From Escherichia phage ukendt, in sequence record NC_052661.1: DNA of 64,000 nt, one strand, 5' to 3'. Each line of letters starts with the position of its first letter. Position 1 is the first letter of the stretch. Below the pieces are notes generated by a model, which did not search any database, was not told where the DNA came from, and saw only the letters and a list, made by a program, of their open reading frames with translations. A program made the position numbers and the translations under genes. Positions 23,577 to 48,065 of this stretch are shown here, piece after piece.

Positions 23577-23858
23577 ATGGAACTCGTTCAAGAACTGTAT
23601 AATGCTTTAGGAGCAAAAGGAAAAGATTGGCCCGAACATGCGCTTATTGCTATAAGAGACTCCGATGGTGAGATTAAGTTTTCAAGCGTAAGTAAAGAGC
23701 ACATTGTACAAACAAAACTGGGTATTTATATGCGTGGAACTTATTGCTTATTCAACACCAGAATGGTAGAAGCCCCTGTTATCGAGGATGGAACAAAAGG
23801 TTGCCCCACAATCGTAACAAAAGCTGAATATGAGAAGTTTTTCTACGCTAAGGCTTGA
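23577..23858 (+). CDS. hypothetical protein (93 aa)
   Basis: ORF track; RBS taaggaggtaat. Confidence 0.55.
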   Translation: MELVQELYNALGAKGKDWPEHALIAIRDSDGEIKFSSVSKEHIVQTKLGIYMRGTYCLFNTRMVEAPVIEDGTKGCPTIVTKAEYEKFFYAKA

Positions 23859-37310: not shown

Positions 37311-37571
37311 TTACTCCGCAATTTGAGCCATGAGATCACGCAGTTCGGTAAAACCGCCTACGTATGTTACCTCCCCGTTCACTTCAGACAGAATTTGTGG
37401 AAATGTGCGTGGAGGAACTCCGGTAAGATCAACAACTGTTTTAGTCATTGATTCTAAATCGTAGTCTTGGTCAAGACTTAAATATTCAAACTGTTTATTG
37501 CGCATGGTTAATAGTTGTTTTGACATTTCGCAAAATTGACAGTTAGGTTTACCAAAAATTACAAATTCCAT
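37311..37571 (-). CDS. glutaredoxin/NrdH-like redoxin
   Basis: CQFC active-site motif in a small thioredoxin-fold protein adjacent to rml and nrd genes. Confidence 0.75.
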   Translation of the reverse strand: MEFVIFGKPNCQFCEMSKQLLTMRNKQFEYLSLDQDYDLESMTKTVVDLTGVPPRTFPQILSEVNGEVTYVGGFTELRDLMAQIAE

Positions 37572-38413
37572 TACCTCTCCTTATTAAGTAATACTGCTAA
37601 AGACCGTTCAATACCTTTATTTAAATCTGATTTTGTAAGATAGTGACTGGTTACTAATTGTGACTTCACCGGACGTGCTGCTGGAGCATTATAGGTTGAA
37701 GCTGATACCGCCGATATCTTAACAGGTTCTGGCATCTGTGTCAAGATCTTTTCCGCAAACTCCGCCCAAGAAATAAGATGGCTTCCTGCAAAATGGTAAG
37801 TCTTAACAGACCTTGACCAACCTGTTTTTAATACTTCAAAAATAGCTTCTGCTAAATCTGGAGCATATGTTGGACAAGAGAACTGATCAGCAACAATAAT
37901 AAAATCACGTTGTCCATCATTATAGCGAGACAACATGGTTTTTAGAAAGTTATTTCCAAATTCGCTATATACCGAGGCTGTTCGAATAATATATGCATTT
38001 GGGTTAACTCCTCGCACCATTTTTTCACCAAGTTCTTTCGTATACCCATAATTGTTTATTGGGTTAGGTGTAGTATCTTCAAAAATAGGATGAGAATAAT
38101 TAAAAATATAGTCTGTAGAAATATGCACAAAATCAATTTTAAGTTTACTGCACACTGCTGCAATGTTTGCAGGGCCGTAGGCATTAACAGCCAAAGCAGT
38201 AGCAAAATCATGTTCTGCTTTATCTACAGCCGTATAAGCAGCGCAATTAATAACACCATCTACATAATCTTCAATAATAGCGTTGCGCACGGCTTCAAAA
38301 TTTGTAATATCTACACGTTCTTTAGGATAAATTAAAGATACGTTTGAAGGAGCCACTTTACGTAAAGCTTGTCCCAGTTGTCCATTACCACCCAATACCA
38401 GATATGTTAGCAT
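37571..38413 (-). CDS. rmlD: dTDP-4-dehydrorhamnose reductase
   Basis: N-terminal GGNGQLG Rossmann motif, RmlD-like length, last gene of the rml operon. Confidence 0.8.
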   Translation of the reverse strand: MLTYLVLGGNGQLGQALRKVAPSNVSLIYPKERVDITNFEAVRNAIIEDYVDGVINCAAYTAVDKAEHDFATALAVNAYGPANIAAVCSKLKIDFVHISTDYIFNYSHPIFEDTTPNPINNYGYTKELGEKMVRGVNPNAYIIRTASVYSEFGNNFLKTMLSRYNDGQRDFIIVADQFSCPTYAPDLAEAIFEVLKTGWSRSVKTYHFAGSHLISWAEFAEKILTQMPEPVKISAVSASTYNAPAARPVKSQLVTSHYLTKSDLNKGIERSLAVLLNKER

Positions 38414-38973
38414 ACACCCTCACTACGTAGCTGTTGAAAAGACTTAGCCATTGCATCTTTTGTTGATAAGATAGGTTTAAAATCTTCGTCAAAAATCATA
38501 TCGAAGCCCCAATCAATCCCTATATCAGGATCATCCCAACGTAAACTTTGCTCGCTGGAAGGGTCGTATGGAGTTGTGCATTTGTATTCGAAGATAGCAT
38601 CCATACTCAAGACTATAAAGCCATGTGCCAAACCAGGTGGAAGCCAGAACTGTGTATGGTGTCGTGCACGAAGAACAACACCGTCCCAAGCACCGTAAGT
38701 TGGACTGTCTTTACGTAAGTCTACAGCGAAATCCAATACTTCACCACTTACACAACGAACAAGCTTGCCTTGTGGATTATTTGTTTGGAAGTGCATTCCT
38801 CGCAAAACACCGAAGTTTGATTTAGACATGTTATCTTGAACGAAAGTTTGTTTACCAATAATATCTTCGTATTTTTGTTCATTGTATGTTTCTAAAAAGA
38901 AACCACGATCATCTTTATAAACGTCTGGTTTGATAATTACCGCACCTTCGATTTTTGTTTTTTCTACTTTCAT
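38407..38973 (-). CDS. rmlC: dTDP-4-dehydrorhamnose 3,5-epimerase
   Basis: [10 protein letters not shown] and RGMHFQ motifs; start at MKVEK with ATGA overlap to rmlA stop. Confidence 0.85.
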
Positions 38974-39848
38974 TTTCTCTCCGCTAATTTGAGTAGGTAT
39001 TGCCCGTACTCTGTTTTCTTCAGTGAGTTTCCATGGTACACCAAAGTCTCTAAAGAAATCCACCCTTTTTTGAAAGCAATTTCTTCCAGGCACGCAATCT
39101 TCAATCCTTGGCAGTTCTCAATAGTCTGCACGAATTGACCAGCTTCCATCAGACTGGCGTGTGTTCCTGTGTCAAGCCAAGTAAATCCTCGTCCGAGAAC
39201 TTCTACTTGTAACTTCCTGTCTTCGAGGTAGCTGCGATTGATATCTGTGATCTCCAGTTCTCCACGCGAGGAAGGGGTTACTTCTAGTGCGCGTTGAACA
39301 ACAGAATTATCATAGAAATACAAACCTGTGACAGCATAATCTGATTTAGGATTTTCAGGTTTCTCTTCAATAGAAATAGCTTGACGATTACTCCCAAATT
39401 CAACCACGCCGAATCGTTCAGGATCTTTCACCAAATACCCAAAGATACAAGCTCCGCCCCAAACATCTACCATCTCACTGGCATTAATCAGTAGTTTACC
39501 AAAGCTTTGTCCGAAGAATAGGTTGTCACCTAAAATAAGAGCAACAGAGTCTTCTCCGATAAAATCTTTACCGATGATGAAAGCCTCCGCAAGACCTCGT
39601 GGCTCGGATTGGATTGCGTAAGTGAGTTTTATCCCAAACATAGACCCATCTCCGAGAAGATACTTAAAGTCTTCCTGATCGCCTGGTGTGGTGATGATTA
39701 AGATATCTTTAATGTCAGCCAACATCAATACCGATAAAGGGTAGTAGATCATGGGTTTGTCATACACAGGGAGCAATTGCTTGCTCACACTGCGTGTTAC
39801 CGGATGAAGGCGGGTTCCACTTCCTCCCGCCAAAATAATACCTTTCAT
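38970..39848 (-). CDS. rmlA: glucose-1-phosphate thymidylyltransferase
   Basis: [19 protein letters not shown]-terminal motif. Confidence 0.9.
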
Positions 39849-39856
39849 AACCCTCC

Positions 39857-40849
39857 TTAAATCTTCTCACTCCACCATTGAGGGTTGTTTAAGTACCATT
39901 CAATCGTTGAGTAGAGATCTTGTTCAAATGTAGAGTTTGCACTCCAACCCAGTTCAGACTCTATTTTAGAAGGATTGATTTCATAACGCAAGTCATGTCC
40001 TTTACGATCTTCAACAAAAGTTATCAAGTTGGAAGAAGGGTAGGTTCCTGCTTCTGGATGTACAGCATCCATGTAGTCACAAACCATATAGATGATCTCC
40101 ATATTGGTTTTGGGATTACGTGTTCCAATATTATACGTTTGACCTGGTTCTCCACCTGTTGCCACTTGAAGAATAGCTCGCGCATGATCCTCCACAAAAA
40201 GCCAGTCTCGCACCTGATCGCCTTTACCATACACTGGAATCTTTTTATTCGTCAAGATACTTGTGATGATTTTTGGGATCAGCTTTTCTGGATGTTGATA
40301 AGGTCCAAAGTTATTGGAGCAGTTGGTTATCACAACAGGTAAGTCGTAGGTACGGTGCCAAGCTTTCACAAGATGGTCAGATGCTGCCTTAGACGCACTG
40401 TACGGGCTTGAAGGGGCATAAGCTGTCTCTTCGGTAAAAGGAACGCCAGAGTCTGCCATATCGCCGTACACTTCGTCTGTGGAGACGTGTACGAACATCT
40501 TCAGTTTATTCTTTGGGAGGAGCCTTGCAGCTTCCAATAAATTGTATGTACCAATAATATTGGAGTCGATGAAAGCTCGTGGATTCTTGATAGAATTATC
40601 CACATGACTCTCTGCCGCTAAGTGAATGATGAAATCGGGATTGCACTCTACTACTAAACTTTTGACCTGGGCTTCGTTTGCCAAATCTGTTATACTTAGT
40701 TTAGCGTGAGTGATATCGCCTACATTCTTAATGTCTGCTGCATAGCTCATCTTATCAACGACAAAAACTTCGTTATTGGGATCTTGACAAAGAGAGCGCA
40801 CCACGGCGCTCCCAATAAAACCAAGACCACCTGTTACCAGATAGCGCAT
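39857..40849 (-). CDS. rmlB: dTDP-glucose 4,6-dehydratase
   Basis: [13 protein letters not shown] Rossmann motif and SDR catalytic region. Confidence 0.9.
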
Positions 40850-41481: not shown

Positions 41482-41690
41482 TATTCCTCCTTAATTATTT
41501 CAAACTTGGCAACACCATTTACAATAATATGACCACAAGACATAACTCCTAACCAAGGATCGCCGTTTTTCTTCAGGCGTTTACCGAATACATCACAAAA
41601 ACCATTCTTCATTTCGGAGGCTTCATAAGAAGCCCCTTTGTCAAAAACGTCTTTGAATGTGTCGATTATACCAACACATCTCAGAATCAT
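41481..41690 (-). CDS. hypothetical protein (69 aa)
   Basis: ORF track. Confidence 0.45.
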   Translation of the reverse strand: MILRCVGIIDTFKDVFDKGASYEASEMKNGFCDVFGKRLKKNGDPWLGVMSCGHIIVNGVAKFEIIKEE

Positions 41691-42775
41691 TAGAAGTCAA
41701 GCTCCTCATCATCAGAAAGATCTTTGTTAGCTGAATTCAACTTGTAATTAGTTAACTGAATCTCTTGGGCTGCTGACTGAATCAAATCAGGATTCAACCA
41801 TTTTTCCATCCAAGCTAAAGGACTATGTTTAGGTGCTTTAAACTTGGCTTTCATTTTCAATCGACGATAAATAGGAGCAGCATTGAAATAAACCCACTGT
41901 TTAGACAATTCGGCGTTAAGACCTACAATAAAACGACCTTCACTAAACAGGTAGTCACACCACTGTTCCTCTTGTTCAACAACAGTGTCGAGGATCAAAG
42001 TCAACTCTTCAATATTGTCTTCGTAAATTTTACGCCAAATTGGGTCATGCATCAATGCATCAATTACAGCATAATCCATCTTAACATGCAAGATTTCATC
42101 TAGCATAATTTTCTGGATCAGTTTACAAGCCCCAACAAACAGTTGTTGTTCTGCCATAGCAAAAGTAGCAGAGAAGGAAGATATGAACTGAATACCTTCT
42201 AATCCAATCAGGGCTACCATCCCTTTAAGAATCAGCAATCGAAGTTCATCGTTAGCTTCAATCAATCCTAGAGCATACTTATGACCAGCTTCTTCCAACT
42301 GACCCATGATATCAGCAATGATACCCATACGATTGAAAATTTTATCATTAATCATAATCTGATTGATGACTTCAATTGGATCTGGAGTACATTGACGGAT
42401 TATTTCAGAATATGTTAACGCATGGAGAACTTCCATTTCACTCTGCTTCATCATCATAGCACAGGCTTCATTGTTACTCAAGAATGGAGAGAACAAAGTG
42501 ATGATTGATTTTGCAAGAGAATCATTTTCCCATTGGAACGATAAGTTTTTAATCATAACATCATAGTTGTTTTTAGAACAAGCTACGAAATCTTTACGTG
42601 TCTGATCCAGATTGACTTCATTCTCATCCCAATCTTGTGCTTTTTGAAGTTTGTAGAGTTTATGCATTTCTGGATAAGTTACGTTAACAGAATCAAAAAT
42701 CCCTAATTGTTCTCCTAAAAATACTGGATATTTTCCTGTTTTGTAAACTTCATTGTGTAAATTAATTGCTGCCAT
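41690..42775 (-). CDS. nrdB: ribonucleotide reductase class Ia beta subunit
   Basis: R2-type diiron/tyrosyl region and length. Confidence 0.9.
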   Translation of the reverse strand: MAAINLHNEVYKTGKYPVFLGEQLGIFDSVNVTYPEMHKLYKLQKAQDWDENEVNLDQTRKDFVACSKNNYDVMIKNLSFQWENDSLAKSIITLFSPFLSNNEACAMMMKQSEMEVLHALTYSEIIRQCTPDPIEVINQIMINDKIFNRMGIIADIMGQLEEAGHKYALGLIEANDELRLLILKGMVALIGLEGIQFISSFSATFAMAEQQLFVGACKLIQKIMLDEILHVKMDYAVIDALMHDPIWRKIYEDNIEELTLILDTVVEQEEQWCDYLFSEGRFIVGLNAELSKQWVYFNAAPIYRRLKMKAKFKAPKHSPLAWMEKWLNPDLIQSAAQEIQLTNYKLNSANKDLSDDEELDF

Positions 42776-42796
42776 TTAAAATTCTCCTCAATAAAA

Positions 42797-42810
42797 AGGG
42801 GCCGAAGCCC
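42797..42810 (-). terminator. hairpin GGGGC-CGAA-GCCCC between nrdA and nrdB
   Basis: identical stem-loop followed by T5 in minus sense; possible attenuator. Confidence 0.5.
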
Positions 42811-42819
42811 CTAGTTTCA

Positions 42820-45060
42820 TCACATCTTGCAAGCTTCACAACCACCATCAGAATCTTCTTGTGCTAAAGAATCTGCTGATTTTGTTCTACTATTAAGGTA
42901 ATACAATGACTTACCACCCAGTCTAGCAAAGTTCAAAATAAATTTCATCTCTTCTTTAACTGATAAACGTCCCCCTACCAATTTAGAATAATCTAACCAA
43001 GAATCACAAGAAATTCCTTGGTCCGTAAACTTGGTAAAGATACCATACATTTCTGCAAGATCTTTAGCCGGAGTATCCCAGGCGGACTGGTAAAACATTT
43101 TCAGTTTTTCATAGTCTGGAACAATAAATAATACACTACCTTTCTGACTTTGTTTATACATAATAGTATCACGAACAGGATACAGAGAGTTAGTAGTATT
43201 GCTTACCAAACTGCTGGACTCATTAGGTGCAATAGCAGCCAAGACACTGTTACGGATACCACCTTGTTCAATGATTTCAGCACGTAAGCCTTCCCAGTCC
43301 ATTTTAAGATCAAAATTACCGATACTGTCTACTGTTTTAGCATAAGTGTCAATTGGTAGCCAACCTTGAGGCCATTTGGTTTTATCGATCCATTCCGCAT
43401 TGCCTTTTTCCTTAGCCAGACGCAGAGAGGCTTTTGCCAACCAAAAGTAATGACGTTCTGCAAGTTCATGCATTAATTTTTTAGCATAAGCATCTGAATA
43501 ATTTACAAAATTACTTGCCAAGTAATGCGCTAAGTTTGTAATGCCTACACCAATAGATCTACGTGCTTTAGCAGTTATTTCGTTATGTTTAAATGGATAA
43601 TCCATTGTTTCAATAACGTTGTCAATTGTCAATACAGTGTAGTATGCAACATCCTCATATTCTTCAGGTAAGACACGACCAGCAACAATAGAAGATAAGA
43701 AGCATAAAGCCAATTCTTGATCTTCTGTATTCTCACCAGTAAAGAGATCCGGCATACTGTGGAAAGCTTTAGTTGGTAAGAAGATCTCTTGACACAGGTT
43801 TGATTGATACACCGTATCCAGGAAAGGTGTATGGTTGTTAACGTTGTCAGCAAAGAACATGTAAATACGTCCTGTTTCTGCACGTTGAACAATAATCTCT
43901 GTCAGAAGATCACGAGCCTTAACAAATTTTTTCTTAATGCGACGACGGCTTACTTTGTCATAAACTGCATCAAACTCTTCTTCACTTTTATACAAAGCTT
44001 CATAAAGTTCAGGAGCATCATCACAACTAACTAACATCCAGTCTTCGTTTTTTGCTGCTCGACGCAAGAACGAACGGTTAACAACAATAGAATAATCTAG
44101 TTTGTCTACTCGTTTATCTATAGGTGTTGTTGGATTCTTCAGTCGAATCAGATCGTCGAAGTCTGGTTCAAGTATGGTAAAGGTAACTGTAGCACTACCT
44201 CCACGGCTTGCTTGCTTCGAAGCTCCAACACTATCTTCCATCCATTTCAGATACGGAAGAAGACCACCATGAATAATACGATTATTCTTAACACCTTGAC
44301 CTGTGGCACGAGTTTGAAGATTAACACCAATACCTGCGTTATTCAACGTATACTCATGAGCTAAGTAATTAGCAATGGCTAAAGATTCTGCCGTATCGTC
44401 TGCACGGAATAAACAACAAGACGCACTTCCTTTGATTGGAGTTCGTAGAGTTGTCAGATACGGCGATGGCAGATTAATCTTAAGATCGCTAACATAAGTA
44501 TAAAGTTTTTTAATATCTTCTATACGGCGTTCTTTTGGTTGGATCTCCATAACCTTCATTGCGATACCAATGAAAAGAAACTGTGGAGACTCATGCACCA
44601 CATCGTTTACTGCATCTCGAATAAGATATTTATCTACCATCTGACGTAAAACAGAATAACCATAAGTTAGATTTTTATTATGCTTTACAATCTTACCGAT
44701 TTCTTTGATCTCTTCATCAGTATAATCCATTTTAGCCCAATGTCCACGTTCTACCATATCATGATAAAAGGTATTCAGTGAAGGGATACTGTGGTATCCC
44801 CCATGAGCCTGTTTGTAAATCATACCCAGAAGAAGCCTTCCTGCCATATCACTGTAAGCTTGTGTTTTCTTGTCAATACACGCTGCAATCATTGCTTTAT
44901 GCAGATCACGTGTAGACACACCGTCATAACACCGCTTCACAGCTTCTAATTCAATTTCAGACCAGTTTAGTTTACCTGCTGCAAATTCAGACCACTTGCG
45001 AAGTTTTTCTGGATTAAACTCCTCTGTCTTACCGTTAGATTTAGTTACAAAACGAATCAA
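42820..45060 (-). CDS. nrdA: ribonucleotide reductase class Ia alpha subunit
   Basis: N-terminal ATP-cone, SNLCQEI catalytic motif, 746 aa. Confidence 0.9.
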   Translation of the reverse strand: MIRFVTKSNGKTEEFNPEKLRKWSEFAAGKLNWSEIELEAVKRCYDGVSTRDLHKAMIAACIDKKTQAYSDMAGRLLLGMIYKQAHGGYHSIPSLNTFYHDMVERGHWAKMDYTDEEIKEIGKIVKHNKNLTYGYSVLRQMVDKYLIRDAVNDVVHESPQFLFIGIAMKVMEIQPKERRIEDIKKLYTYVSDLKINLPSPYLTTLRTPIKGSASCCLFRADDTAESLAIANYLAHEYTLNNAGIGVNLQTRATGQGVKNNRIIHGGLLPYLKWMEDSVGASKQASRGGSATVTFTILEPDFDDLIRLKNPTTPIDKRVDKLDYSIVVNRSFLRRAAKNEDWMLVSCDDAPELYEALYKSEEEFDAVYDKVSRRRIKKKFVKARDLLTEIIVQRAETGRIYMFFADNVNNHTPFLDTVYQSNLCQEIFLPTKAFHSMPDLFTGENTEDQELALCFLSSIVAGRVLPEEYEDVAYYTVLTIDNVIETMDYPFKHNEITAKARRSIGVGITNLAHYLASNFVNYSDAYAKKLMHELAERHYFWLAKASLRLAKEKGNAEWIDKTKWPQGWLPIDTYAKTVDSIGNFDLKMDWEGLRAEIIEQGGIRNSVLAAIAPNESSSLVSNTTNSLYPVRDTIMYKQSQKGSVLFIVPDYEKLKMFYQSAWDTPAKDLAEMYGIFTKFTDQGISCDSWLDYSKLVGGRLSVKEEMKFILNFARLGGKSLYYLNSRTKSADSLAQEDSDGGCEACKM

Positions 45061-45836: not shown

Positions 45837-46835
45837 TCACCATTTAGTATGATTTGTTAAAAGTTGACGATGTTGAATCCAGCCTTTGAAATTGCCAGAC
45901 CAAAACTTACCATTACGATCTACATGGGTAATACCTGGTTCCCAAGAGTTAAAATCCCAAGGAGCATTGATAAACAAATCTTCAAAACAGTTCTCTCCAT
46001 ATTGTTCGCATGTTTCTTGAATTGGAGTGGCTTGATGTTCAAACGGAGAAGCATGAACCTTGCGCCCAGTCAGCAAGCGACCATAGATATCTAAAGCTTT
46101 ATCTTTAGTTGCATTTAAACGACGATAGCTAACCTGTGCACAACATGAAGCTGAAATAGCTTTGGCTTCTTCCAAAGTAAGCACAACAACTTCTCCAGAT
46201 TCATCTTGAACGTAGTATCCACCAAAAACAAAATGATCGTCACCTTCTGTGCCAATATTATCGTAGAAATGGTCTACATAAGGTGTGTGCCATTGCCCTG
46301 GTTTCAGAACTTCTGGTGTAGATCCTTCATACTCTTTGTGCATCTCTTTAGCCAAAGCTTCGATAGTAGGATCGGCTTCTTTGTCATCACGTAGCCACCA
46401 GAAATTTTCATATTCTGTTGCTGTCAGAACTGTTTTAATTCGTTGGAAAGGTTCCAGAAGACGGTTTGCAACTTGTTTGTGGTACCCTGCCAAAGAGAAT
46501 TCTTCTGCAAAACGTGCTGCACTAAGCGCGGCAAGATCCCACCACTCTTGAGCAGTATAACCTGCATCAATAAGAGCGTCATGATCAACACCTTTATCCT
46601 GCATACCAGGTTGGTTAGCCCCAAAACGATAAGGACGAGCAGGTTGATTTCGCACCATTTCAATCAGTGTTTTAACAGGTATAGCACGGCTAGAAGCAGC
46701 ATTACGACTGAACAGGCGGTGAGTCATCAATTCTGAATGAATAATACGTGGATATTCTAGTTCAAAAGTTACAATCTCTTTTCCGTCTTCAGTGATGGAA
46801 TGCGCAATAATACTAGCCGAAATCTGTTTTGTCAT
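45837..46835 (-). CDS. thyX: flavin-dependent thymidylate synthase (ThyX family, long form)
   Basis: ThyX signature THRLFSRNAASSRAIP (RHR..S) and C-terminal HASPFEH; 332 aa. Confidence 0.8.
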   Translation of the reverse strand: MTKQISASIIAHSITEDGKEIVTFELEYPRIIHSELMTHRLFSRNAASSRAIPVKTLIEMVRNQPARPYRFGANQPGMQDKGVDHDALIDAGYTAQEWWDLAALSAARFAEEFSLAGYHKQVANRLLEPFQRIKTVLTATEYENFWWLRDDKEADPTIEALAKEMHKEYEGSTPEVLKPGQWHTPYVDHFYDNIGTEGDDHFVFGGYYVQDESGEVVVLTLEEAKAISASCCAQVSYRRLNATKDKALDIYGRLLTGRKVHASPFEHQATPIQETCEQYGENCFEDLFINAPWDFNSWEPGITHVDRNGKFWSGNFKGWIQHRQLLTNHTKW

Positions 46836-46844
46836 TTTTTCTCC

Positions 46845-47453
46845 TTAGTTTTTAAAATTGTTCAAAGTGTTAAAAACATCCAAACATGTTAGCCACTGAT
46901 CTTCTAAACCTGTGATCACAACATTTGGTTTTTTCTTTAGTTCTTCTAGATGGTTATCTTTATAAGGCGTATTAAAATATATTTTAACCACTTCATCTGG
47001 AAAATATAGTAGGTTATCAGCCCTGTCATCTATTGCTATATCACAAGGCAATAAGTATTTTTCTTTCGTAGCAAAAAAGCCGTTACCAGATCCTTTGCTA
47101 AAATCAATCGTATCTAACGTTCTTAAAACATGCTTATGTTTAGAACTTAAGTGACCACCTTTTGTCACACTTGCGATCAAAAGATTGCTACCTTTCCTTG
47201 AAACATACTTTAAGAAATCTGGCATACCTGGAACAAAACCCATTGTATCATAGAGATGAGGATTATCCAGAAATCCGTAAGGATCTATATTGAACTCCTC
47301 CCTGAAACCAGGAAAGTAGTTGGTAAGATCATAGTCTGCATTTTTTGTGAATGTGTCTATCTTAACACCAAGTCCACTAATCTTATTCAACCATTCTAAC
47401 CAAGCAATATCTAATGGAGCCACAACTAAATCCCAATCACATACTATCTGCAT
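46845..47453 (-). CDS. putative 5'(3')-deoxyribonucleotidase (HAD-like)
   Basis: N-terminal DWD in place of the HAD DxD motif; identification tentative. Confidence 0.45.
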   Translation of the reverse strand: MQIVCDWDLVVAPLDIAWLEWLNKISGLGVKIDTFTKNADYDLTNYFPGFREEFNIDPYGFLDNPHLYDTMGFVPGMPDFLKYVSRKGSNLLIASVTKGGHLSSKHKHVLRTLDTIDFSKGSGNGFFATKEKYLLPCDIAIDDRADNLLYFPDEVVKIYFNTPYKDNHLEELKKKPNVVITGLEDQWLTCLDVFNTLNNFKN

Positions 47454-47489: not shown

Positions 47490-48065
47490 CTAACTTTCAA
47501 TTTCCTGCAATAGGATTTTGACTATTTGTTTACGGCGTTTTGCTACTGTGCTTTCAGGTTCTATTTTACGCTTCTTCAGCCACGCTTTATCTTTCTTAGC
47601 TCTACACAAAGCTATCGCTTCTTTTTCAGCTTTTGCTTCTTCAAAAGATATGTCTTGCTTGTCTGCATAAGCAAGAATAGAGTTGCACAATTTACAAACC
47701 ATTCGCAAATCTTCTTCTTTCACATAGATCAAACGGAAAACAAAAAGGGGAATATCCTCAAAACATTGAAGTTGTTTTGCTGCGTGAATATGATCCACTT
47801 GGAAGTCTTTCATTCCTCCTTTATGTCCACATATTTCGCACTCACAATTCCAAACTTGTTTTGGTTTTCCAGTTTTCTTGTCTATCATTACATTGCCGTC
47901 TTTATCTACACGATCAACTTTAAAACGCCTTGCATTGATAACCTTAATTTTATTAGGGTGTCTCATCCATGCTTTTCTAAAACATCCCCTAAGATAAGTA
48001 TAAAATTCAGCTTGTGTTTTCCAGGGTGTTCCTTCACCCCACATTATTTTTGGTTCACCTGCCAA
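47490..48065 (-). CDS. HNH endonuclease-like protein
   Basis: CECEICGHKGG...VDHIHAAKQ HNH motif. Confidence 0.6.
   Translation of the reverse strand: MAGEPKIMWGEGTPWKTQAEFYTYLRGCFRKAWMRHPNKIKVINARRFKVDRVDKDGNVMIDKKTGKPKQVWNCECEICGHKGGMKDFQVDHIHAAKQLQCFEDIPLFVFRLIYVKEEDLRMVCKLCNSILAYADKQDISFEEAKAEKEAIALCRAKKDKAWLKKRKIEPESTVAKRRKQIVKILLQEIES

Follow-up and report, generated by a model that had tools for sequence, protein, structure and literature searches.

A ThyX-family protein of Escherichia phage ukendt with an apparently displaced cofactor-site segment

The window analyzed here, a stretch of 64,000 nucleotides of DNA from Escherichia phage ukendt (sequence record NC_052661.1), contains on its minus strand a 332-aa ORF with an ATG start, a stop codon, and an AAGGAG ribosome-binding site 6 nt 5' of the start codon. 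The DNA of this region is 99.4–99.5% identical to that of Escherichia phage phAPEC8 and its relatives (Phapecoctavirus, Stephanstirmvirinae), and at the protein level the identity with the phAPEC8 'putative thymidylate synthase' is 100%. Given this identity and the ribosome-binding site, the ORF is a genuine gene that was previously annotated in phAPEC8. Two records with other host labels, OP562383.1 (Acinetobacter phage vB_AbaM_ABPW7) and MH252123.1 (Klebsiella phage ZCKP1), are 99.3–99.4% identical to phAPEC8 over a 3.1-kb region, and the 146-kb record MG065689.1 (Campylobacter phage A110a) carries a 72%-identical copy that is typical of enterobacterial phages. The Acinetobacter, Klebsiella and Campylobacter labels may be in doubt; if they are right, the host range is uncommonly wide.

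The genes surrounding the ThyX-like gene belong to nucleotide metabolism, as an earlier note on this DNA had proposed (Table 1). The upstream neighbor is a homolog of NT5C-like deoxyribonucleotidases that carries an N-terminal DxD motif (CDWDLV) and is 35% identical (E 7e-30) to CB7_209, a 'putative 5'(3')-deoxyribonucleotidase'. Downstream, two small ORFs separate the gene from those encoding the large and small subunits of ribonucleotide reductase (RNR). Just upstream of the nucleotidase and ThyX genes lies a free-standing gene for an HNH endonuclease. A different HNH gene divides the annotated NrdA of phage CB7 into pieces (L011, 1876–5925). The nucleotide-metabolism module seems to be a repeated target of homing endonucleases.

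Table 1. Positions in the window of the ThyX-like gene, its parts, and neighboring genes
Feature	Position	Strand	Basis
Whole gene, rearranged (non-collinear) ThyX-family protein	45837..46835	-	332 aa + stop
Residues 1-19, N-terminal strand (model strand 6-14)	46779..46835	-	AF2 secondary structure
Residues 20-176, core of the ThyX fold from beta3 onward, corresponding to T. maritima ThyX ~60-203	46308..46778	-	Thy1, TIGR02170, hhalign
Residues 38-51, variant ThyX motif THRLFSRNAASSRA	46683..46724	-	Translation, TM0449 alignment
Residues 177-185, linker LKPGQWHTP	46281..46307	-	hhalign junction alignment
Residues 186-218, beta-hairpin (strands 188-193, 202-210, 216-219)	46182..46280	-	AF2 model
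Residues 219-267, displaced alpha1-alpha2-'PFEH' segment LTLEEAKAISASCCAQVSYRR...KVHASPFEH	46035..46181	-	Translation, profile/hhalign
Residues 268-332, C-terminal tail	45840..46034	-	Translation
HAD-type NT5C-like 5'(3')-deoxyribonucleotidase homolog, 202 aa (upstream neighbor)	46845..47453	-	Pfam NT5C 25.8 bits, cutoff 24.8
Free-standing HNH endonuclease	47490..48065	-	phrog_1985, E 3e-65
Class Ia ribonucleotide reductase large subunit NrdA, 746 aa (downstream neighbor)	42820..45060	-	ORF, phAPEC8 annotation
Ribonucleotide reductase small subunit NrdB, 361 aa (downstream neighbor)	41690..42775	-	ORF, phAPEC8 annotation
Glutaredoxin and dTDP-rhamnose-type ORFs (37311-40849)	37311..37571, 37571..38413, 38407..39093, 38970..39848, 39857..40849	-	phAPEC8 annotation

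Immediately downstream of NrdB are a glutaredoxin gene and a four-gene block of the dTDP-rhamnose type, annotated in phAPEC8 as glucose-1-phosphate thymidylyltransferase, dTDP-glucose 4,6-dehydratase, 3,5-epimerase and reductase. Because this block accompanies the ThyX-like gene, both the predicted synthesis of dTMP and a nucleotide-sugar pathway that consumes dTTP would be phage-encoded. A 'putative dTDP glycosylation machinery' has been described in phi92-like relatives (Maffei et al., PMC8594841). Window and phAPEC8 coordinates differ by about +446 at NrdB and by +125 at NrdA; about 320 bp are therefore missing from the window between nrdB and nrdA (window ~42775–42820), where phAPEC8 has a 408-nt ORF, gp160 (42316–42723). 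The GC skew of the window changes sign at ~24 kb (+ to -) and at ~60 kb (- to +), and the switch at ~24 kb coincides with the change from plus- to minus-strand genes in phAPEC8 (terminator 23789–23806).

A similar arrangement is found in other phages. In both slur16 (Vequintavirinae) and the Pectobacterium phage CB7 the order of genes is DNA-polymerase exonuclease, deoxyribonucleotidase, ThyX, two small ORFs, NrdA, and NrdB. Slur16 has the form of ThyX described here, whereas CB7 has a canonical ThyX of 226 aa at the matching position. The synteny between the window and CB7 is anchored by one verified homolog, the nucleotidase, together with the annotated RNR genes, and the small ORFs downstream of ThyX show no homology between the two. 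The gene also lies near RNR genes in PaP1 and ICP1. Searches of the window with tblastn identified no homologs of ThyA, DHFR, or dUTPase (best E 0.12), and the phAPEC8 record lists no second thymidylate synthase within its first 50 kb. The earlier proposal that this phage uses ThyX instead of ThyA is consistent with these results, over the extent of sequence that they cover.

The assignment of the protein to the ThyX type is upheld both by a curated model and by the predicted structure. Pfam model PF02511 (Thy1) matches at 33.3 bits (E 5e-8), above its gathering threshold of 24.8 bits, and a match at 1e-107 is found to phrog_85, a phage-specific family labeled 'thymidylate synthase'. The ThyX fold is present in an AF2 model of the monomer without cofactor (pLDDT 74.8; 59–73 in the tail, and low confidence at residues 232–239). 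The best structural matches include PolB, a ThyX-fold enzyme that has a changed range of substrates, and a search of BFVD with the model gave nothing further. At the sequence level, the relationship to characterized ThyX proteins is distant. A phmmer search of all PDB sequences with the single sequence gave no match at E<=1, a profile of 55 family members (A2) was needed to reach the ThyX proteins in the PDB, and tblastn with Thermotoga maritima ThyX (TM0449) did not detect the gene in the window at E<=10.

The matches to the curated models are partial. The Thy1 match is limited to residues 22–174, corresponding to profile positions 59–190 of 191, and the thyX equivalog model TIGR02170 of NCBIfam aligns residues 22–176 with model positions 60–207 at 31.1 bits, below its curated cutoff of 87.9. 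The N-terminus therefore lacks the first ~58 positions of the Thy1 profile, and the 156 residues that follow the matches are unmatched; the C-terminal part on its own has no Pfam match. One reading of these boundaries is a collinear ThyX with an appended C-terminal domain of separate origin, and an extra domain in the C-terminal extension had been suggested from the sequence previously. However, the positions missing from the N-terminus turn up at residues ~230–267, with the signature H-x-S-P-F-E-H and an equivalent of S30 of T. maritima ThyX.

In canonical ThyX proteins the order of elements is beta1-beta2, alpha1-alpha2-'PFEH', beta3 with the RHR motif, and then the core. The protein encoded in the window does not have this collinear order, in which the alpha1-alpha2-'PFEH' segment lies ahead of beta3 and the RHR motif; instead, the canonical N-terminal segment that contributes to the cofactor site lies behind the core. 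When aligned with TM0449, the family profile A2 matches in three non-collinear stretches. Profile positions 216–259 ('ISxSCCAQVSYR...vHASPFEHQ') correspond to the canonical N-terminal 'LSAVRAARVSF...HETPFEHI', the N-terminal 'ittfeleypr...tHRlfSRNaaSSR' of the family corresponds to canonical 'VFTFHVKAP...RHRIASYNELSGR', and positions 133–176 correspond to the canonical 'NFLNLRAD...' region. A BLASTP comparison with the canonical ThyX of CB7 gave its best local match between residues 227–273 and CB7 residues 17–63, which at E 0.15 is weak taken alone.

Restoring the canonical order improves the match to the curated model. With residues 186–267, 177–267, or 221–267 placed before residue 20 or 21, the Thy1 score rises from 33.3 bits to 45.5–51.2 bits, and the match becomes a single stretch covering profile positions 14–190. 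Controls in which the module was reversed or the tail was placed in front remain at 29 bits and at profile positions 59–190. Similar results were obtained by comparing profiles, using a canonical alignment (A3) of the validated TM0449 and eight phage ThyX sequences. Against A3, hhalign aligns the family in two separate pieces (E 1e-8 and 2.8e-4), the first pairing family positions 33–190 with canonical positions 57–213, but against a self-concatenated A3 it produces one collinear alignment that runs over the junction (225 columns, score 88.6, E 3.7e-11). By itself, the C-terminal module aligns with canonical positions 22–63 (E 1.5e-5).

The effect of order is consistent throughout the family. 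Using an HMM built from canonical sequences only, 127 of 128 representatives score higher in the canonical than in the native order, with medians of 34.3 and 14.9 bits and a median gain of 19.4 bits, and the start of the match shifts from HMM position 64 to 23. The gain for the reversed-module control is 0.2 bits. As the representatives are mutually related, the evidence lies in the consistency of the gain and not in a p-value. Since placing the segment in front adds 12–18 bits for the protein in the window and raises the score in 127 of 128 relatives while the controls stay flat, we consider an appended domain of separate origin extremely unlikely. The suggestion of an extra domain is not borne out, as the C-terminal region holds the alpha1-alpha2-'PFEH' segment that is missing at the N-terminus.

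The protein is predicted to begin just before beta3 and to continue with the core, a linker, a beta-hairpin, the 'HASPFEH' segment, and a tail. The linker, in which H183 and P185 are found in all 129 representatives, joins what is the C-terminal side in canonical enzymes to the relocated module. In the alignment with the doubled profile the hairpin is paired with T. maritima K2–V16, making it a possible counterpart of canonical beta1-beta2, but it brings no gain in score family-wide, and the N-terminal strand placed before the alpha1-alpha2 segment changes the score by -0.1 bits. Neither element has measurable similarity to beta1-beta2, and both score like reversed controls. For this reason, even though the junction alignment is collinear, the arrangement may reflect a transposition of the alpha1-alpha2 segment alone instead of a strict circular permutation, in which every element of the parent fold would be kept in shifted order and the former termini linked. 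A vestigial second beta3-alpha3-'RHR' in the tail was also sought, and hhalign gave nothing credible (probability about 2%).

The tail is variable over residues ~272–312, and this portion is absent from relatives of 265–290 aa (P0245, P0253, P0266). These short-tail relatives have the spacing PFEH-x14-17-GW-x3-R, which resembles the canonical PFEH59...W76...R80. The motif at the end of the tail, GNFKGWIQHRQ (GNFxGWxQxRQ in the family), is conserved at N315, Q321 and R323, with R323 invariant.

The signature motif of the core differs from that of canonical enzymes. Residues 38–51 read T-H-R-L-F-S-R-N-A-A-S-S-R-A compared with the canonical RHRxxSxNExSxRY, and they keep the histidine, the second arginine, both serines and the final arginine (H39, S48, and R50 among these). 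The 'RHR..S' quoted in the earlier note differs from the sequence, which reads T-HR...S...SSR-A, and the first arginine is replaced by threonine in 124 of 129 representatives.

Canonical ThyX is a homotetramer that binds FAD and whose active sites are formed by several subunits. Alignment with the T. maritima protein gives the core equivalences H39=H79, R40=R80, S48=S88, R50=R90, R125=R147, N144=N169, and R149=R174, and in the displaced segment S236=S30, H261=H53, S263=T55, E266=E58, and H267=H59. The T. maritima residues are those that bind dUMP and form the flavin/folate site; R174, R90, R147, and S88 contact uracil and phosphate. The mapped catalytic residues are kept in 123–129 of the 129 representatives, with the exception of R40 (105/129), although these proteins are only ~37–55% identical to the query. 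For the dUMP-binding equivalents the counts are 127 (S48), 128 (R50), 128 (R125), and 129 (R149), and for those of the flavin/folate site 129 (S236), 129 (H261), 127 (S263), and 123 (E266). About 20 positions are invariant across the representatives, including all mapped substrate and cofactor residues.

Substitutions at three residues in or near the active site of canonical ThyX are systematic. R78 corresponds to T38 (124/129), Y91 to A51 (128/129), and R165 to T140 (126/129). E86 is also replaced, by alanine or serine across the representatives and by A46 in the protein encoded in the window. Conversely, four invariant residues (K120, H183, P185, and R323) lack an equivalent in canonical ThyX. 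The relocated segment would pack at the site occupied by the canonical N-terminus, rebuilding the same active site, and K120, H183, and R323 may compensate for the loss of R78, R165, and Y91.

Relatives of 556–683 aa (P0128, P0135, P0143, P0157, P0255) were considered as candidate intermediates of a tandem duplication; they are in fact intein-bearing genes. They have matches to Pfam Intein_splicing (59.7 bits) and to an HNH or LAGLIDADG_3 homing endonuclease. The inteins are found at three conserved sites, 'VH|C...GN|CELMTHR', 'THR|C...HN|CFSRN', and 'H|C...GN|SSPFEH', which correspond to residues 33/34, 40/41, and 261/262 of the protein in the window and so lie before the signature motif, inside it, and inside 'H|SPFEH'. 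Homing inteins usually occupy essential active-site motifs. Their positions in both motifs therefore provide independent support for the functional importance of these regions.

When 1.84 billion cluster representatives were searched exhaustively with the 332-aa protein, 4,982 passed as relatives at E<=1e-3, of which 1,608 reached E<=1e-30; among the best 150 of the 4,982, most align with the query from end to end. By tblastn, 1,033 phage records contain the gene, 989 of them with a match over 80% or more of the query. For comparison, canonical ThyX is found in 2,142 phage records. The carriers include rV5-like, PVP-SE1-like, PaP1/PAK_P1-like, N4-like and phiCbK-like phages, ICP1, and phages of Cellulophaga and Flavobacterium. 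A scan of 185,579 species-representative genomes with two peptide patterns identified ten loci, all on MAG contigs and none in isolate genomes, which is consistent with a phage-borne family.

The protein was previously noted as being about 100 aa longer than typical ThyX. This is correct with respect to canonical ThyX. However, the length is not unusual within the subgroup, whose median is 318.5 aa with a 5–95% range of 280–359 aa (134 representatives without inteins and shorter than 450 aa), and the apparent anomaly disappears because 332 aa is a normal size for a large subgroup of phage ThyX proteins. Only ~85–95 residues are truly extra, namely those of the N-terminal strand, the linker, and the tail, and ~40 of these are absent in the short-tail relatives.

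The loss of the first arginine of the RHR motif and of the motif tyrosine, together with the marginal scores on curated ThyX models, could point to a degenerate and non-catalytic relic of ThyX, such as a nucleotide-binding or regulatory protein. We consider this very unlikely given that all mapped substrate and cofactor residues are among the invariant positions at 37–55% identity, that inteins occupy both motifs, and that the gene is kept near RNR genes in more than 1,000 phage genomes of many lineages.

The gene probably encodes a phage-borne, rearranged ThyX that makes plain dTMP for phage DNA synthesis. The predicted enzyme would be a flavin-dependent thymidylate synthase of class EC 2.1.1.148, converting dUMP to dTMP with methylene-tetrahydrofolate, FAD, and NAD(P)H, and the ordinary dTMP would feed phage DNA synthesis alongside the deoxyribonucleotidase-like enzyme and NrdAB. 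We favor plain dTMP as the product because a canonical ThyX occupies the matching position in CB7 and because related phages are sensitive to restriction. Vequintavirinae and their relatives have been described as exceptionally sensitive to restriction-modification systems (Maffei et al., PMC8594841); these data come from Vequintavirus and phi92-like phages, with Phapecoctavirus itself not included. Searches of the open-access literature returned no biochemical or genetic assay of any member of the subgroup.

A ThyX-fold enzyme with altered chemistry or an altered substrate, which forms 5-hydroxymethyl-dUMP or methylates another pyrimidine and so feeds a modified base, is an unlikely alternative, as is the modified-pyrimidine role raised in the earlier note. 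The nearly invariant threonine, alanine, and threonine in place of R78, Y91, and R165, the new invariant residues K120, H183, and R323, the failure to reach the TIGR02170 equivalog cutoff, and the structural match to PolB would all be compatible with such a change. However, the equivalents of the uracil- and phosphate-binding residues R174, R90, R147, and S88 are invariant, and the canonical ThyX of CB7 and the restriction sensitivity of related phages argue against it as well. In addition, known routes of thymidine hypermodification begin with dUMP hydroxymethylases of the ThyA family and not with ThyX (PMC8989533), and no DNA-hypermodification genes (base kinase, aGPT-Pplase type) are annotated near the rearranged gene. 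It is distinctly unlikely that the clade as a whole is a naturally permuted ThyX with an active site rewired so as to alter the substrate or product, by releasing 5-hydroxymethyl-dUMP from the exocyclic-methylene intermediate or by methylating another pyrimidine nucleotide. If it were so, more than 1,000 sequenced phages (rV5-like, ICP1, PAK_P1-like, N4-like, phiCbK-like) would make a non-canonical pyrimidine pool.

Near-identical genomes give the gene different names ('thymidylate synthase', 'ThyX', 'FAD-dependent thymidylate synthase', 'hypothetical protein'), possibly because the curated HMMs (Thy1, TIGR02170) recognize the core alone. The ThyX match spans two annotated features in several rV5-like records. 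The inconsistent naming would be mended by a model built specifically for the rearranged form. Our search of the literature, restricted to open-access full text, found no description of a rearranged ThyX. While the gene and its annotation were already known, the rearrangement may be undescribed in the open-access literature.

ThyX works by an unusual mechanism and is a target for antibacterial drugs. An abundant branch that keeps the catalytic residues while it relocates the cofactor-binding segment, loses the first arginine of the signature motif and the gate tyrosine, and gains new invariant residues would offer a natural test of which architectural features ThyX requires. In the phage ukendt window the gene would be an ordinary part of the nucleotide-supply module, and it is the rearrangement across the family that offers a structural and mechanistic lead.

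The canonical ThyX (FDTS) references are TM0449 (PDB 1O26/1KQ4) and A674R of PBCV-1 (PDB 2CFA/4FZB). Compared with these, the protein in the window has the alpha1-alpha2-'PFEH' segment behind the core, T-HR..S....SSR-A in place of R-HR..S....S-R-Y, and threonine for R165. About 100 aa longer, it also has a strand added at the N-terminus, a linker with invariant H183 and P185, and a tail containing the invariant R323. The closest comparison by gene neighborhood is with gp206 of CB7 (Vequintavirinae, Certrevirus), where the gene order is alike, but the CB7 enzyme is collinear and has 226 aa, whereas the protein in the window has 332 aa and is rearranged.

The ThyA proteins of E. coli and T4-like phages have the same presumed role, the conversion of dUMP to dTMP, which in the phages serves nucleotide supply. 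However, their fold and mechanism are unrelated to those of the rearranged ThyX. The ThyA reaction produces dihydrofolate, and a DHFR usually accompanies the enzyme. PolB of Streptomyces cacaoi (PDB 4P5A/4P5B), a C5-methylase of UMP and dUMP in the secondary metabolism of polyoxin biosynthesis, differs in another way. It is collinear with ThyX, matching TM0449 at 121 bits over residues 6–208, and by sequence the profile of the rearranged family barely reaches it (E 2.1).
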